Part shown: piece after piece, positions 9,138-17,600 of the stretch | How positions within the stretch are numbered: the first letter of the stretch is position 1 | How the letters are laid out: every line of letters begins with the position of its first letter | Assembly: GCA_964418255.1 (NCBI GenBank) | Contig: CAYQKV010000005.1 | Coordinates: forward strand, 16,956 to 80,955 | Direction: 5' to 3' | DNA length: 64,000 bases | Origin: an uncultured Christensenella sp. | Lineage (GTDB): Bacteria; Bacillota; Clostridia; Christensenellales; DTU072 | The notes under the pieces: generated by a model | Database searches by the model: none | Told to the model about the DNA's origin: nothing | What the model saw: the letters and a program-made list of their open reading frames with translations, nothing else | Translations under genes and position numbers: made by a program

Positions 9138-10571
9138 ATGAATACGGAAACATATGAAAATCCGTTAATTACGCGTTATGCGTCTAAAAAGATGTCCGCG
9201 TTGTTTTCCGAGAGAAAACGTATCGGTCTTTTTCGCCGTCTGTGGCTTGCTCTTGCCGAAAGCGAAAAAGAGCTCGGCTTGCCGATTACCGATAAGCAAC
9301 TCGAAGAAATGCGCTCTCATCTCGACGACATAAATTTCGAAGACGCCGCAGCCAGGGAAAAAATAGTGCGACACGACGTTATGGCGCATATATACGCCTA
9401 CGGTTTACAATGTCCGACCGCCGCGCCTATAATTCATCTCGGCGCAACAAGTTGCTACGTAACCGATAATGCGGATATAGTTATCTACAAAGAAGCGCTC
9501 GAACTTCTACAAGACAAACTTGCCGACGTTATGCGCAAACTTGCCGATTTCGCTGTAAAATACAAAAAAATGCCTACGCTCGGGTTCACACATCTGCAAC
9601 CCGCTCAGCTCGTCACGGTAGGTAAACGCGCGTGCCTATGGCTACAAGACCTCTATCTCGATTATGAGGAATTAACTCATATAATCAAAAATCTTAAACT
9701 CAGAGGAGTTAAGGGAACTACCGGTACGCAGGCAAGTTTTATGGAACTGTTCGACGGTGACGAAGAAAAAGTAAAACTACTCGAAAAAAAGGTCATCGAT
9801 AAAATGGGTTTCAAATCCGCTTTCGACGTTTCGGGACAGACATATACCCGCAAAGCAGATTACGCCATTCTTTCGACTCTCGGTATGCTTGCGCAAAGCG
9901 CATACAAATTCAGCAACGACGTACGTATACTTCAACATCTCAAAGAAATCGAAGAACCGTTTGAAAAAAATCAGATAGGCAGTTCGGCAATGGCATATAA
10001 GCGCAACCCGATGAGAAGCGAAAGAATAAGTTCTTTGGCGAGATACTTAATCACTCTTCCGACGAACACGGCGATAACCGCGTCTACGCAGTGGTTTGAA
10101 AGAACACTCGACGACTCGGCAAACAGACGAATAGTAATGGCGCAGGCATTCCTTACCGCGGACGCAATTCTCGAATTATACTACAACGTGGTAAACGGGT
10201 TGGTTGTTTATCCGAAAGTGATTAAAAAACACGTTATGGAAGAACTGCCGTTTATGGCGACGGAGAATATTCTTATGGAATGTGTAAAATGCGGCGGTAA
10301 CCGTCAGGAATTACACGAAAGAATAAGAATTCATTCGATGGAAGCAGCTAAACGCGTAAAAATGCTCGGTAAATCGAACGATTTGATAAGCAGAATAAAA
10401 CAAGACCCTGCTTTTGATAAAATATCGGACAAAATCGACGATATTATCAATCCGGTTAATTTTATCGGCAGAGCGCCGTCGCAAGTTACCGAATTTGTAA
10501 AGAAACTTCGCCCGATACTTAAATCGGACAAAGATAAACAAGATAAAATCGAAAATAACATTACCGTCTGA
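9138..10571 (+). CDS. purB: Adenylosuccinate lyase
   Basis: It has the fumarate-lyase signature GSSAMAYKRNPM and full-length family-like sequence. Confidence 0.95.
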   Translation: MNTETYENPLITRYASKKMSALFSERKRIGLFRRLWLALAESEKELGLPITDKQLEEMRSHLDDINFEDAAAREKIVRHDVMAHIYAYGLQCPTAAPIIHLGATSCYVTDNADIVIYKEALELLQDKLADVMRKLADFAVKYKKMPTLGFTHLQPAQLVTVGKRACLWLQDLYLDYEELTHIIKNLKLRGVKGTTGTQASFMELFDGDEEKVKLLEKKVIDKMGFKSAFDVSGQTYTRKADYAILSTLGMLAQSAYKFSNDVRILQHLKEIEEPFEKNQIGSSAMAYKRNPMRSERISSLARYLITLPTNTAITASTQWFERTLDDSANRRIVMAQAFLTADAILELYYNVVNGLVVYPKVIKKHVMEELPFMATENILMECVKCGGNRQELHERIRIHSMEAAKRVKMLGKSNDLISRIKQDPAFDKISDKIDDIINPVNFIGRAPSQVTEFVKKLRPILKSDKDKQDKIENNITV

Positions 10572-10584
10572 AAACCTGACAAAG

Positions 10585-12029: not shown

Positions 12030-13266
12030 AAATAATTTTCCGATTAAAAAAATTTCGGGCGCGGTTATCGGTATAGCTGCTTATGCGCTCACCGCCGCTC
12101 TTTGTCGCAAATTTTTCCCGTTGTACGTCGAAATACCTGTTTGGTGCGTTCTCGCCGCATTATGCGTTTGTTTTTCGATAGGAATTGCAAAAAACAAGAG
12201 CGGTTTGTATAAAATCAGTATACTTATAGTGTATTTTGCCGTAATTATTATGGCGATTTTTGCGATAATCACCGCTACGGGAGTACTTCAAAATATTCTC
12301 GAAGCGAAAGACGGCAAAGAATTATACGAGACGCTGAACGAACAATACGGAAAAAATCTTTATATTATTCTGATAGTATTCCAGTTTTTGCAAGTAACGT
12401 TTATACCCATTGCTTCTTCCATCGTAACCGCGGCAGGCTACTATTTATGCGGACAAAATATTCCGCTTACGATTTTATTTTGCTGTATAGGTTTATGGGC
12501 AGGTTCGCTGTTCGCGTTTTTTCTCGGAAGAACATTCGGCGTCAGACTGGTACGTTGGGTAGCGGGGGAGAAAGTTCTGCTTAAATATCACCAGTTCGTC
12601 AAAGGCAAGGACAAAGTTATGCTCGGATATATGTTCGTTTTTCCAGTATATCCCGACGACGTGCTGTGTCTTATCGCAGGACTTACAGCTATGAGCTGGC
12701 GAGAATTCATTTTCTTACAACTGATTTCACGCCCGATAAACGTTGCCGCAACTGTTCTTATGTTATATCTCGGAACAAGTCTTACTAAAATTTTTCCGCT
12801 TAACTCGTTCGTCGGGATAGTCTTTTGGGTAGTCATAGCCGCTTTATTCGTACTTTCTTTCATTCTCGTATGGAAAAAAGCCGACAAATTAGAGCGCTTT
12901 ATGACAAAACTTATTTCAAAAATCACGGGCAGACCGATTTTAAGCGACATCAACACCATATATAAAATAAACGTTACTTCAAAACAAATCGCCGAAGAAC
13001 AAGCGGTTGCGGCGAGCATAACAGAGGAGCCGCAGAGCGAAACAGTATATGAAACAATCGAGGTTTTCAACGATAAAAGCGCCGAAATTACGGACTCGAC
13101 AGGGGAAAACGCAATCCTTGCGTCCGATGCGGAACAAACGGAAGAACCTCATATCGACGTAGAAGCGCTTAAAAAAGCCGAAGAAGAACGCGAAAAACGA
13201 AAACTTGAAGAGACGAAAGATATTATAAATTCGGCATTAAAACAGGATATCACTATTAAATTCTGA
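12013..13266 (+). CDS. TVP38/TMEM64 (DedA/SNARE-associated) family membrane protein with an acidic C-terminal tail
   Basis: It is multi-TM with family-like segments FIPIASSIVTAAGYY, FFLGRTFG and PDDVLCLIAGLT. Residues from about 300 to 417 are low-complexity and rich in E/K. Confidence 0.8.
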   Translation: MTAETKNNFPIKKISGAVIGIAAYALTAALCRKFFPLYVEIPVWCVLAALCVCFSIGIAKNKSGLYKISILIVYFAVIIMAIFAIITATGVLQNILEAKDGKELYETLNEQYGKNLYIILIVFQFLQVTFIPIASSIVTAAGYYLCGQNIPLTILFCCIGLWAGSLFAFFLGRTFGVRLVRWVAGEKVLLKYHQFVKGKDKVMLGYMFVFPVYPDDVLCLIAGLTAMSWREFIFLQLISRPINVAATVLMLYLGTSLTKIFPLNSFVGIVFWVVIAALFVLSFILVWKKADKLERFMTKLISKITGRPILSDINTIYKINVTSKQIAEEQAVAASITEEPQSETVYETIEVFNDKSAEITDSTGENAILASDAEQTEEPHIDVEALKKAEEEREKRKLEETKDIINSALKQDITIKF

Positions 13267-13269
13267 AAG

Positions 13270-13301
13270 AAATCCCGTTGCAATGATTTGCAACGGGATT
13301 T
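13270..13301. terminator. Bidirectional terminator hairpin at the convergence point
   Basis: A perfect 14-bp stem (AAATCCCGTTGCAA-TGAT-TTGCAACGGGATTT) has T-rich flanks on both strands. Confidence 0.75.
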
Positions 13302-13334
13302 CAATATCCATATATGAAATTTCTTTACAAAGGT

Positions 13335-14750
13335 TTATTTCTGAAAATAATTTTCCGATTTATATAATACTGTAAAAATCAATCCCATAAAAACCGACGT
13401 AGAAGCGATGATTACAGGCGAATAAATTTCCGGCGACTGCAATCCTTTTCCGCCCGGCACAAGAAGTGCAACAATCAAATCAAGCATAAAGAACAGTGTA
13501 AAAAATCCTATCGTCGCGGCGTTTATCGCTTTAAGATTTACCTTGTCTTTTCGTCTTTTGTCCGGATTTCTGAACCATACCAAAGCAACGCACAGGGCCA
13601 ACGCCAACGCGATACTTCCGCATACAATCAAAGCCGTAAGAGAAAAACCGAATGTATTCCTCAAAAAATAGAGTAAAAGGAGAGTAATTATCATATAAAG
13701 CGCGCTGAGAGCAACTACGTCTCTGAATAAACGATTTACATAAACATACTTTACCGTTTGCACGGATTCTTTTTCCGCTTTATATGTATTAAGCGCAAAT
13801 CCTTCGCTGCGCAGGCTGTTGCGGAATTTCTCGATATTACTTTCTTCCGCCGCTTTAATATTCATTTTAACGGGTTTAGCCTCGGCAATCTGCTCGCTAA
13901 AAGAGTCAACAGACGAAGTTTTTACGGTATTTTTCGAAGCAGCGGATTTTGTCGGCTGCGTAGATTTACTTTTAGCCGGGGCCGTTTGTCTGTTTTTAGA
14001 CGATTTTGAGCTATTACCGTTTATAACAGGAGCAGTGATTTTTTCAAAAACGGCTTTGTAATCCGTACTTGTTTTTTTACTGCGAGTCTGGGTAGAACCG
14101 TTAGAGGCAGGTTTAGCGGGAACAGGGTTGAAAACAGGAGAGGAGATTTCGACGTTTTTCGCAGAAACAGTCATAGTTTCACTCTGCGAATAATCGTTCG
14201 CGGCAGTCGGCTCGATTGCGGTTTCGGTATCTTCAGCGACATAACCCGCGGCGGCAACTTCGTCGACGGGGTCATCAGCTGACGCGCCGTCGTCGTGCGC
14301 GTCCTGCCTTGTACGCTTTGTAAGAGGCTTCAAATCGCCCGCATAATAAGGCGCCTCCTCGTTATCAAGGTCAAAATCTTCGTCCGTAAGGAGATTATCA
14401 AGCAAAGTCCTCAGATACTTATATTCTTCCTTGTTGTCGTCAAGATATTTTTTTCCTTCGGGCGTGAGTGTATAATATACTCTTGCCGCGCCGTTGGTCT
14501 CTCCGTCGCCTGCGGACGAATAAACGAGATTCTGCTCTTCGAGACGTTTGAGAGTGTTATAAACCGTTGAATACGTCTTTATTTTATAATGACCCTTCGT
14601 CCTGTTCTGAATATAGTTAATGACGTCATAGCCATAACTCGCTCCATCCTTGTCCTCAAGCGCGTTTAACACAAAAATATCGAAACGCGAGCGGAACATT
14701 TTTTTATTTTCCGATTCGGCAATTTTTTTTCTGCTTTCGATTTCTTCCAT
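13335..14750 (-). CDS. PadR-family wHTH regulator fused to a long disordered linker and a C-terminal multi-TM domain
   Basis: The N-terminus (ASYGYDVINYIQNRTKGHYKIKTYSTVYNTLKRLEEQNLVYS...ARVYYTLTPEGKKYL) is PadR-like. About 200 aa of S/K/T/A-rich linker follow. The C-terminus has about 4 hydrophobic helices. Confidence 0.8.
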   Translation of the reverse strand: MEEIESRKKIAESENKKMFRSRFDIFVLNALEDKDGASYGYDVINYIQNRTKGHYKIKTYSTVYNTLKRLEEQNLVYSSAGDGETNGAARVYYTLTPEGKKYLDDNKEEYKYLRTLLDNLLTDEDFDLDNEEAPYYAGDLKPLTKRTRQDAHDDGASADDPVDEVAAAGYVAEDTETAIEPTAANDYSQSETMTVSAKNVEISSPVFNPVPAKPASNGSTQTRSKKTSTDYKAVFEKITAPVINGNSSKSSKNRQTAPAKSKSTQPTKSAASKNTVKTSSVDSFSEQIAEAKPVKMNIKAAEESNIEKFRNSLRSEGFALNTYKAEKESVQTVKYVYVNRLFRDVVALSALYMIITLLLLYFLRNTFGFSLTALIVCGSIALALALCVALVWFRNPDKRRKDKVNLKAINAATIGFFTLFFMLDLIVALLVPGGKGLQSPEIYSPVIIASTSVFMGLIFTVLYKSENYFQK

Positions 14751-14921: not shown

Positions 14922-16004
14922 TTATTCTTCGGTTGAAGAATTTTTACGAAAATTCACTTTATCCGCCGCAGATTTTTTTATATCTTCGCTGATTGCCGCA
15001 TAGTGTTTTTTAGTAGTATTTATATCTTTATGTCCGAGAACTTCGGCGACAACGTAAATATCGTTTGTTTGCCTATACAACGCGGTACCGTAAGTGCTTC
15101 TCAATTTATGCGGAGAAATTTTTTTGAGCGGCGTTACTATCTGCGCATACTTTTTTACCATTATTTCAACGGCGCGCACTGTAATTCTTTTATTTTGAAG
15201 CGAGAGAAACAACGCGTCGACTTCTTCCGCCGAAATTTTCTTTTTTTCAAGCTGCGCTTTTCTTACAGGTAAATACGCGTTTATCGCGTCGATTATTTCA
15301 TCGTTAAGATAGAGGATTGACTCTTTTTCACCTTTTCTCGTCACTATAAAACTTTTATTTGCAAAGTTTATATCGTCCAGATTCAGTCCGACGCATTCGC
15401 TTACACGAATTCCCGTACCGAGGAGCAGGGTAATTATCGCATTATCGCGTACTTTAGTATTATTATTGTTATATGCGTTTTGTTGCTCGCTGATAAACGT
15501 AGATTCCGTATCCAAAAGTTCGAAAACTTCCTGAACTTCATCGTTTTCCAATCTGATTATTTCTTTTTCCCTAAGTTTGGGCATAGCGACTTTTGTAGTT
15601 ACGTTTTCGCCGATAAGTTCGTGCGTATAAAGATATTTGAAAAGACTGCGAACCGCGCTAAGTTTTCTGGCTTTAGCTTTATCCGAATTCTTCACAAAGT
15701 CGCCGTTTACGGTATAATAACCGCCTATATAATCAACAAAACGCTCAATATCTTTGCCTTTAACCGTATTCAAGTCCGATAGGGTAATATCTCTAACATT
15801 CATTCCGTCAAAAATAGCACCGTCTGAAACAAGATAATTAAAAAAAACAATTAAATCAGTACCGTAATTAAATCTCGTTAGGACAGTTGTAACCGAGGAA
15901 ATCCCGATAAAAAAATCTTCGCAAAACGCAGGCAAAGAGGGAATTATCTCCGTGCGCAATTTATTTAGATATTTTTTATCTCGTTCATATACGTATTTTT
16001 CCAT
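14922..16004 (-). CDS. Tyrosine site-specific recombinase, Xer family (long, XerS-like architecture)
   Basis: The C-terminal catalytic region has ...GIRVSE... (Arg), HKLRSTYGT and LGHKDINTTKKHY (His/Arg/His/Tyr set). The N-terminal SAM-like domain is long. The ATG at 16004 (MEKYVYERDKKYL) is preferred over the GTG at 16127. Neither start has a clear SD. Confidence 0.85.
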   Translation of the reverse strand: MEKYVYERDKKYLNKLRTEIIPSLPAFCEDFFIGISSVTTVLTRFNYGTDLIVFFNYLVSDGAIFDGMNVRDITLSDLNTVKGKDIERFVDYIGGYYTVNGDFVKNSDKAKARKLSAVRSLFKYLYTHELIGENVTTKVAMPKLREKEIIRLENDEVQEVFELLDTESTFISEQQNAYNNNNTKVRDNAIITLLLGTGIRVSECVGLNLDDINFANKSFIVTRKGEKESILYLNDEIIDAINAYLPVRKAQLEKKKISAEEVDALFLSLQNKRITVRAVEIMVKKYAQIVTPLKKISPHKLRSTYGTALYRQTNDIYVVAEVLGHKDINTTKKHYAAISEDIKKSAADKVNFRKNSSTEE

Positions 16005-16250
16005 AGATTTAATTCTAACACAAACCCAAAATAAAGTCCACACGATGCGATTGAAAAAGCAAATTGTGTAAATAAGGCGACCGACAGTAGACTTTATAAG
16101 TCGCGTATGAAAAAAAGTTTTATCCACAAATCATATAATAGGGAAGAAAGACAGAAGCCACAAGGGAATCAACCAACAAAAATCACGCAAAATAGAAAGC
16201 AAAAAGTCGACAAGACAGGAAGAGAATAAGAAAAATTTTAACTTCTATAT

Positions 16251-16280
16251 CTTTTCGCAAAATACAGCTTTTGCGAAAAG
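16251..16280. repeat. Perfect 12-6-12 inverted repeat CTTTTCGCAAAA-TACAGC-TTTTGCGAAAAG
   Basis: Read directly from the sequence. No U-tract follows on either strand. It is either a candidate recombinase core site or a non-canonical terminator. Confidence 0.9.
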
Positions 16281-16361
16281 AAATGGTTAAGGGGAGAGGG
16301 TATTATTGTAAATTAACGTTTGAATTATAATTTCATTGTTAAATCTTTGCTTATTTGTTAC

Positions 16362-17600
16362 TTAATTCTGCGCGTTAAAATACTTTACGATTTCCATTAT
16401 CGCCAACTTGCAATGTTCGTAAGTCAGCCCGCCTTGCATATAGGCAACAAACGGTTCGCGAACCGCGCCGTCTGCGGATAATTCCAACGACGCGCCTTGT
16501 ACGAACGCGCCGGCAGCCATAACAACCTGATGGTCGTATCCCGGCATATCCCACGGCAACGGCGTGACATAACTGTCGACCGGAGAGGCTTTCTGTATTT
16601 CTCCGCAGAACGCAACGAGCTGTTCCGCGCTGTCAAACTTTATGCTTTCGATAATATCATACGGCATATTCCCGGGTTTCGGCATAGTCTCAAAACCGAA
16701 TCCCTGCAAAGCGTAACCGGCAAGCACGCTTCCTTTCAACGCGTTCCTTACCGCAGACGGCGCAAGAAACAGTCCTTGGTAATACGGTAAATAACCCGAT
16801 AAGCAAGACCCGACTTCCATTCCGAGCAAAGGCGCGGTAAGCCTGTATGCTATTGAACGAATATATTCTTTCTTTCCGCAGACGTACCCCCCGGTAGGCG
16901 CAATACCGCCGCCGGGATTTTTTATAAGCGACCCGACGATAACGTCCGCGCCGACTTCGGTAGGTTCTTTCTTCTGGACGAATTCGCCATAGCAGTTATC
17001 TACTACAAAAATAGCCGTAGGGCACATCGCCTTTATTTTCGCTATCGCGTCCCCTATTTTTTCCACGCTGAGCGCGTCTCTCCACGCATAACCTTTACTT
17101 CTTTGCAGGAAAACTACTTTCGGCTTATGTTTATCGATAGCGTTTTTTACCGCTTCAAAATCGATTTCACCGTCTTCCGTCAACTCCGTTTTAGCAAAAC
17201 TTACTCCGAAATCGCGCAACGACCCGTTGCCTTTTCCGCTTATAACCTCGTCAAGCGTATCATAGGGCTTTCCAGTTACGCTCAAAATGCCGTCGTCGGG
17301 ACGAAGCAACCCGAAAAGCGCAATAGTAAGCGCGTGCGTTCCGTTTGCAATCAGCGGAGAAACCACCGCGTCTTCCGCGCCCATAACAGATGCAAATAAT
17401 TTGCAAAGAGTTTCTCTCCCGACGTCGTCGTATCCGTACCCGGTCGACGGGTTGAAATGCACTGCGGCAACGCGGTTTTCTCTGAACGCGTCAAGCACTT
17501 TTTTCTGATTAAATAGCGCTATATCATCAAGCGCGGCAAACTCTTTCTCCGCGGCTTTTTCGCATTTAAGTATATATTCGTCAATATTATTTATAAACAT
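16362..17600 (-). CDS. Methionine gamma-lyase family / aluminium-resistance (YnbB-like) PLP protein
   Basis: It resembles the YnbB family over its full length (STGYGYDDVGRE..., GSLIKNPGGGIAPTGGY). Its position after miaA matches Bacillus-type synteny. Confidence 0.85.
   Translation of the reverse strand: MFINNIDEYILKCEKAAEKEFAALDDIALFNQKKVLDAFRENRVAAVHFNPSTGYGYDDVGRETLCKLFASVMGAEDAVVSPLIANGTHALTIALFGLLRPDDGILSVTGKPYDTLDEVISGKGNGSLRDFGVSFAKTELTEDGEIDFEAVKNAIDKHKPKVVFLQRSKGYAWRDALSVEKIGDAIAKIKAMCPTAIFVVDNCYGEFVQKKEPTEVGADVIVGSLIKNPGGGIAPTGGYVCGKKEYIRSIAYRLTAPLLGMEVGSCLSGYLPYYQGLFLAPSAVRNALKGSVLAGYALQGFGFETMPKPGNMPYDIIESIKFDSAEQLVAFCGEIQKASPVDSYVTPLPWDMPGYDHQVVMAAGAFVQGASLELSADGAVREPFVAYMQGGLTYEHCKLAIMEIVKYFNAQN

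Follow-up and report, generated by a model that had tools for sequence, protein, structure and literature searches.

A candidate dif-like recombination site with symmetric arms beside an XerS-like recombinase gene at the inferred replication terminus of gut Clostridia

A palindrome in a 64,000-nucleotide stretch of DNA from an uncultured Christensenella sp. (this whole stretch is called the window in the following) is very probably a dif-like core site of Xer-type site-specific recombination at the replication terminus, which would separate joined sister chromosomes. With less assurance, but still on the favourable side of even, we regard the site and the gene next to it as members of an undescribed Xer/dif family that occurs widely among Clostridia of the gut and rumen (Christensenellales and their relatives, with thousands of homologues). 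This family would combine a single XerS-like recombinase with a symmetric, loxP-like 14-6-14 terminus site. The direction of the site would come only from its conserved asymmetric centre, and the site would also be a target of temperate microviruses.

The preliminary description of this DNA had reported a perfect 12-6-12 palindrome at 16251-16280. This palindrome is real and consists of the arms CTTTTCGCAAAA (16251-16262) and TTTTGCGAAAAG (16269-16280) around the centre TACAGC (16263-16268). The perfect arms are even 13 bp long, as T at 16250 and A at 16281 form one extra pair, and when one mismatch was allowed in the inverted-repeat search they reached 16 bp (16247-16262 and 16269-16284). From the inverted repeat, the consensus, the information content and the alignment of the spacers between ynbB and the recombinase gene (xer), a full recombination core site of 34 bp is predicted at 16249-16282, with the left arm ATCTTTTCGCAAAA (16249-16262) and the right arm TTTTGCGAAAAGAA (16269-16282); 13 of the 14 arm positions pair in the window. 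The central region TACAGC (16263-16268, read on the + strand) is asymmetric and comprises 6 bp according to the spacer statistics and the provirus junctions of locus L237. We infer that it is the region of strand exchange and sets the direction of the site. Even with three mismatches the palindrome pattern occurs only once in the window, and in 100 dinucleotide-preserving shuffles of the window it was found 0 times.

In the window the palindrome is situated between a YnbB-like gene and the recombinase gene, both on the - strand. The YnbB-like gene (16362-17600; PF06838, Met_gamma_lyase, Pfam 5.7e-166) ends just before the site; it closes a mutS-mutL-miaA-ynbB block which is the synteny anchor across the loci. 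Downstream, the recombinase starts about 245 nt from the end of the palindrome, as had been stated for an upstream position of the palindrome. Promoter-like hexamers (TGGACT-17-TAGAAT, with TG; 16012-16040, - strand; consensus scan only) precede the recombinase gene about 210 nt downstream of the palindrome, and a similar TGGAC(T/A)...TA..AT is seen in the spacer alignment in L001, L003, and L100. A half-site-like 9-mer, TTCGCAAAA, is present at 15918-15926 within the recombinase ORF, on the strand that encodes F-C-E of the conserved LPxFC motif; it is probably due to chance. The recombinase gene is followed by a gene for a 471-aa protein (13335-14750, - strand) that has a PadR domain at its N-terminus and is hydrophobic in its C-terminal part; this protein is a conserved neighbour in most loci.

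Conservation of the site was assessed in 80 genome loci fetched via the recombinase (50-92% identity), giving 81 loci together with the window. A palindrome of the 14-6-14 family is present in 48 of these 81 recombinase-anchored loci, nearly always as a single copy. Considering only the loci with at least 3 kb of upstream sequence, 44 out of 62 contain the site, and in the 18 remaining orthologue loci no such site is found within 4 kb. The site is located 5' of the recombinase gene in 47 of the 48 loci, at a median distance of 403 nt, and the reversed-sequence control yielded a single match in 620 kb. There is one site in the 64-kb window and, with few exceptions, one strong site per fetched locus.

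The consensus of the site is A-W-C-TATTCGCAAAA / N6 / TTTTGCGAATA-G-W-T. Within the arms the information content is about 2 bits, and outside the 14 nt of each arm it is at background level. The spacer carries less information than the arms; its consensus, [G/C]ACA[A/G][C/G] (NACANN), is asymmetric and partly conserved. Lineage variants are mirrored, both arms being altered together: TTTTCGCAAAA (the window type), TATGCGTAAAA, TATTCGTAAAA, and TTTGCGCAAAA. When ten spacers between ynbB and xer were aligned (mean column identity 36%), all 21 invariant columns fell within the palindrome. On two faecal scaffolds whose recombinase is only 44-46% identical the site is still found upstream of the gene. 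The conservation of the palindrome beside orthologous recombinases, which had been proposed as a check, thus holds down to 44-50% protein identity.

Further loci were found in metagenomes by means of the exact 22-nt consensus (site-only loci). The recombinase gene is lacking from the fetched flank in 81 of 120 such site-anchored loci, 7 of the 81 having more than 4 kb on both sides. Consequently, the linkage of gene and site is frequent but not obligatory.

Several loci deviate from the common arrangement. In loci without the site nothing consistent was found among other palindromes. One clade without the site (L022, L027, L042) has a different conserved palindrome, ATTATATAATA-TTGAC-TATTTTATAAT, about 40-60 nt past the stop codon of the recombinase gene and before a short PadR gene; it resembles a promoter or operator. 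In two Stercoripulliclostridium loci (L008 at 3554, L010 at 472) an additional right half-site, TTTTACGAATA, is found some 120 nt away from the main site; it could serve as an accessory site for binding or be left over from an old insertion. Locus L113 has two copies of the site 142 bp apart (10378-10405 and 10548-10575). Their spacers TGGTCA and TGACCA are reverse complements, so the two sites are inverted relative to each other, and the recombinase could flip the segment between them. Three IMG/VR contigs (L082 at 9847, L090 at 2368, L094 at 11890) have in common a consensus site whose spacer is GGATAG. A gene for a dUTPase and a large peptidase-like gene are nearby, and the fetched DNA of these three contains no homologue of the recombinase. 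Finally, L098 (FZPS01000068.1) shares a 2.9-kb xer-padR block with L099 at 99.9% identity in an unrelated context without site or skew switch. Since the record contains 310 N and only these 2.9 kb are common, the foreign context is probably a scaffold join.

The recombinase gene of the window (14922-16004, - strand) encodes an XerS-like tyrosine recombinase of 360 aa, as judged from the NCBIfam XerS model NF003462, the invariant columns and a structure model. The listed ORF of 401 aa has the same frame and starts at an earlier GTG at 16127. Because the protein matches the Pfam family Phage_integrase (PF00589) at 3e-32 and its homologues align from residue 1 (MEKY...) of the 360-aa form, not from the in-frame GTG, the shorter ORF was taken as the real one. 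In 28 family sequences the residues R200, K224, H299, R302, H325, and Y335 are invariant, which corresponds to the full catalytic set of tyrosine recombinases (R, K, H-x-x-R, H/W, Y).

The top NCBIfam match of the protein is XerS (NF003462; 200.8 bits, E 2.6e-59), residues 11-351 being aligned to positions 5-357 of the 360-position profile. The profiles of XerD, XerC, and XerA reach 154-160 bits and cover the protein only from about residue 77 or 105 onward. In all 28 diverse family members the XerS model is the strongest and aligns over the full length (best E-value 1.4e-61). To five annotated XerS proteins of Lactobacillaceae the identity is 29-32% over about 95% of the length, to a plasmid-borne annotated XerS 26%, and to E. 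coli XerD 27.5% over 287 aa only. A rough neighbour-joining tree without bootstrap places the family as the sister clade of Lactobacillales XerS and away from XerC/XerD. The claim that the protein resembles XerS more than XerC/XerD is therefore borne out by best score, full-length alignment and tree position, but the score of 200.8 bits stays below the curated XerS cut-off of 267 bits, and the remaining family members are presumably below it as well. On these comparisons the family appears to form a separate clade, about 30% identical to XerS.

A phmmer comparison with XerH (5jjv) gave 3.4e-8 in the catalytic domain only, weaker than with XerD (3.7e-22). The AlphaFold model (pLDDT 86) has its best PDB matches in XerH, XerD, and XerA, with XerH-difH on top; the fold search does not separate the three (TM about 0.4; the domain orientation dominates). 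The family comprises at least 8000 proteins at E <= 1e-10, and the named members come from Clostridia, Christensenellales and related genomes assembled from metagenomes. Clustering with phage integrases was rejected, since tblastn against phage records gave at most 46% identity; the top matches there are unverified faecal scaffolds which themselves have the site upstream of the gene. Thus, in the proposed comparison of Xer families and phage integrases the protein groups with the Xer families, XerS being the best. Large plasmids of Clostridium botulinum (H15-H20) and the large plasmid pNP144 of Butyrivibrio hungatei (L103, 3935-5991) encode more distant recombinases of about 350 aa, whose identity to the window protein is 33-37%. 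In pNP144 the gene adjoins that of a 299-aa recombinase, and no palindrome related to the 14-6-14 site was found there.

The recombinase gene can lie on one side of the site or on the other, always reading away from it. The arrangements were divided into class A (the window, L001, L003-L006) and class B (L015, L018, L038, L063, L075, L079), and chromosomal synteny (mutS-mutL-miaA-ynbB ... padR-dedA-rnhA) is stable across lineages at 50-85% identity. Relative to the mutS-mutL-miaA flank, not to the gene, the orientation of the spacer is constant in 9 of 10 class A and 10 of 12 class B cases, counts that are phylogenetically non-independent. The site may be fixed relative to the polarity of the chromosome while the gene has moved. 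In many class B loci lexA stands directly beside the recombinase gene (L079 5085-5741, L095 744-1352, L232 11124-11753, L237 11154-11780). Often, an ORF of about 300-330 aa is situated between site and recombinase gene (L095 2589-3479, L055 2963-3922, also L062, L064, and L078); it has no Pfam match and only a weak one to phrog_18746.

The position of the site relative to the replication terminus was deduced from GC skew and gene orientation. In the window the GC skew changes from positive to negative at about 12-13 kb, where the cumulative skew peaks, and the genes converge at 13267-13334, between an ORF ending at 13266 on the + strand and one ending at 13335 on the - strand. This presumed terminus region is about 2.9 kb from the palindrome, in agreement with the putative terminus that had been placed some 3 kb away. 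At a terminus the GC skew of the left flank exceeds that of the right flank, whichever strand is read. This relation was found in 32 of 36 recombinase-anchored loci (sign test 2e-6) and in 40 of 45 non-redundant site-only loci (mean difference 0.13; sign test 8e-8). Many site-anchored loci are without a nearby recombinase gene and contain ordinary chromosomal genes such as uvrB, ribF, and truB; in L147 the site follows ynbB at the point of gene convergence, with no recombinase within 4.4 kb. As the skew also switches at the site-only loci, the site appears to mark the terminus in a wider set of bacteria than those with the gene adjacent to it.

Microvirus proviruses inserted in the site give our strongest result, an indirect but specific indication from the junctions that recombination takes place inside the 14-6-14 site. 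In L237 the order is padR, ygjP, TATGCGCAAAA|GACAAG|TTATGTGTATA, a 5.4-kb microvirus, TCTGCGTAAAA|GACAAG|TTTTGCGCATA, xer. The microvirus encodes Phage_ORF5, Chlamy_scaf, the Phage_F capsid and REP_ORF2-G2P but no integrase. The two host arms are 5.5 kb apart, and each is joined to a phage arm across the identical 6-bp spacer GACAAG. The outer arms are exact mirror images, TATGCGCAAAA corresponding to the reverse complement of TTTTGCGCATA; we read them together as the host site and the differing inner arms as those of the phage. Mirrored outer arms, arms swapped between the junctions and the same 6-bp centre are the product expected of a tyrosine-recombinase crossover in the central region. 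In the related loci L232-L236 one intact palindrome is located between ygjP and xer, and no virus is present; measured against the same query, the L033 recombinase, their recombinases are 91-92% identical and that of L237 93%.

A second provirus was found in L095, in the order ynbB, lexA, xer, a 296-aa ORF, TATTCGCAAAA|CTATGC|TTTTGCGAATA, a 4.9-kb microvirus and a second, degenerate site, TATCCGCAAAA|GCCCTT|TTTTGCAAATA. The microvirus encodes a replication initiator (phrog_942, PF23343), a pilot protein, an F-type capsid protein (PF02305, phrog_514), a scaffold protein and a DNA-binding protein. Microvirus genes also abut the site in L033, L055, and L195. A free microvirus with the predicted attP (TCTGCGTAAAA-GACAAG-TTATGTGTATA) was found neither by the exact pattern nor among 79 distant relatives. 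A perfect consensus site is also present on a tailed-phage contig with portal (phrog_64) and large terminase (phrog_38) genes (L093 6004-6031, also L083 389-416). In L093 it is surrounded by about 500 nt of non-coding DNA with many GTGAAAC and GGATCACC repeats, and it may be a phage attP or a dimer-resolution site using the host enzyme.

We considered whether the palindrome could be a transcription signal instead. That the hairpin terminates transcription, as an intrinsic or a bidirectional terminator, or forms another kind of RNA element where the ynbB-like gene ends, is very improbable. The sites of the window and of class A do lie 33-194 nt past the ynbB stop codon, the stem would be stable as RNA, at -16 to -18 kcal/mol with z = -4, and a base-paired hairpin, too, would be expected to change its arms in a mirrored way from lineage to lineage. 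However, a T-run after the hairpin is absent on both strands, the terminator scan did not flag it and Rfam has no match for the palindrome. Unlike in terminators, the primary sequence is kept down to about 45% identity of the neighbouring protein, and the proviruses appear to recombine within it. Crude ORF calls place the site between tandem genes in 25 cases, between convergent genes in 8 and between divergent genes in 4, which argues against a terminator and against a promoter operator alike. In L079 it lies between the start codons of padR (- strand, 3694) and xer (+ strand, 3995), so there is nothing to terminate; L075, L032, and L052 also have it between divergent start codons. The terminator was rejected on the missing T-run and the divergent intergenic regions, and the earlier judgement that the hairpin is a poor intrinsic terminator stands. 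An operator for the PadR-like protein, for LexA or for a self-repressing recombinase, with no role in recombination, is hardly credible. Such a function would account for a palindrome upstream of xer with a PadR-like gene as a frequent neighbour and, in several loci, an adjoining lexA. Against this, in L037 the 3' ends of ynbB and serS face each other across the site, which is 2.2 kb away from xer and has no promoter there that it could control. In L096 the site precedes xer by 140 nt, and 21 kb of this locus contain no padR; on this context the PadR/LexA operator was rejected. In the window about 210 nt separate the site from the promoter-like hexamers downstream of it, and an operator would leave the skew switch and the split arms at the provirus junctions unexplained. 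The LexA box of Gram-positive bacteria is CGAAC-N4-GTTCG, and the 14-6-14 site is unlike it.

Two further alternatives concern the enzyme and the purpose of the reaction. The site could be a true dif-like site on which one or more XerC/XerD-type recombinases encoded elsewhere act, the adjacent XerS-like gene having another role. We consider this unlikely. Many site-bearing loci have indeed no recombinase gene within 4-9 kb, but in nearly all site-containing genome loci and in most recombinase-carrying metagenome loci the site is 5' of the gene, often by 42-300 nt, and this linkage has survived the local rearrangements between classes A and B. Identical arms fit one protein species and not a heterodimer, and no second tyrosine recombinase is encoded within the 64-kb window. 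That gene and site are the integrase and att site of a mobile element, or a DNA-inversion switch, and do not serve chromosome maintenance is most improbable. The Pfam domain is the generic "Phage integrase", L113 has its two inverted copies 142 bp apart, and distant long relatives occur on plasmids; yet the chromosomal synteny is stable across the lineages, there is one site per locus and at the terminus, and the best family scores are to Xer models. Moreover, the inserted elements are integrase-less microviruses which would use the site from outside.

Returning to the dif-like core site, the adjacent XerS-like recombinase is most likely its enzyme, an assignment made by linkage only. The perfect symmetry of the arms suggests that one protein species binds both and acts alone. 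In the proposed mechanism each of the identical 14-bp arms would be occupied by one molecule of the adjacent recombinase. In a dimer of joined sister chromosomes two such sites would synapse, and the strands would be cleaved and exchanged where the arms meet the asymmetric 6-bp centre. This would resolve the dimer to monomers at the replication terminus. Dimer resolution would accordingly be the biological role of the system, and FtsK may control the reaction.

Chromosome dimer resolution is understood in Proteobacteria, Bacilli, Campylobacterota and Archaea; the large uncultured lineages of gut Clostridia are not among the groups in which it has been clarified. A defined 34-bp site with a candidate enzyme could serve as a terminus marker for assembling and orienting Clostridia genomes from metagenomes, and the site would offer a means of linking temperate microviruses to their hosts. 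The compact, perfectly symmetric pair of recombinase and site is also a candidate genetic tool. Furthermore, full symmetry in a chromosomal dif-like site is relevant to the question of how Xer systems with a single recombinase set the order of strand exchange when their arms are not asymmetric.

The 14-6-14 site with its sharp boundaries has the generic geometry of Xer/dif sites, that is, inverted arms of about 11 bp and a centre of 6-8 bp. Neither the sequence of the site nor an XerS-like system in Clostridia was found in the full-text literature searched, and the site is absent from Kono's predicted dif sites. In the XerS/difSL system gene and site form one module near the terminus (PMC5357621). 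The system described here resembles it in this respect, in the length of the recombinase (about 356-364 aa) with N-terminal and inter-domain regions that align over the full length, and in the inner arm motif ...AAAA / TTTT.... However, difSL is a 31-bp site with the unequal, imperfect arms TTTCCGAAAA and TTTTCTTGAAA and a central region of 11 bp (PMC5357621, review), whereas the present site has identical 14-mer arms, a 6-bp centre and a different sequence. The recombinase is only about 30% identical to XerS and below the NF003462 cut-off, and the host class is Clostridia, not Bacilli. Since the XerS cut-off is missed and the site is unlike difSL, we regard it as a sister system, not as XerS/difSL itself. 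A difSL-like motif upstream of Lactobacillus amylolyticus xerS was not seen.

XerH/difH likewise has a single recombinase of 354-362 aa, a site near the gene and a 6-bp centre in crystal structures (PMC5357621). The likeness to difH of Helicobacter and Campylobacter extends to the arms, which end in GAAAA / TTTTC, to the 6-bp centre and to the position near the gene of a long single recombinase. In contrast, the difH arms are imperfect (AGTTATGAAAA / AAAAGTTTGA), sequence similarity to XerH is confined to the catalytic domain, and the hosts belong to a different phylum. With the XerS cut-off missed, an architecture other than that of difSL and a weak similarity to XerH, the system belongs to neither group.

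XerCD/dif of E. coli and B. subtilis has an 11-6-11 core and one site at the terminus and is, like the present site, an integration target of integrase-less phages including microviruses. It differs in having two recombinases of about 298 aa, two different arms and genes that are unlinked to dif. XerCD-dependent integration of gokushoviruses at dif has been shown experimentally in E. coli (PMC7062461), and integration of integrase-less microviruses at dif via the host Xer proteins has been proposed for Bacteroidetes (PMC3091885). The proviruses described here are like these prophages in their size of 4.9-5.5 kb, the lack of an integrase, and one host-like and one degenerate copy of the site. 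Unlike them, they occupy a symmetric site of the Clostridia type, and the presumed enzyme is XerS-like and not XerCD.

Known chromosomal dif sites have unequal arms, whereas the site in the window is perfectly symmetric, and this had been raised as a caveat in the preliminary description. Cre/loxP of phage P1 combines one recombinase with symmetric 13-bp arms and an asymmetric spacer that sets the direction, and it resolves replicon dimers. The caveat is answered in the same way here, since the partly conserved spacer of 6 bp (NACANN) is asymmetric like that of loxP and would supply the direction. Cre/loxP differs in its 8-bp spacer, in being borne by phage and plasmid and in having no terminus or FtsK context, and the fold match between Cre and the recombinase model is distant (E about 1e-4). 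The novelty of a single-recombinase module outside the streptococci had been overstated, as XerS is already annotated widely in Lactobacillaceae. What is new compared with these systems is instead the distinct clade of the recombinase, the distinct symmetric site, the host group and the link to microviruses.
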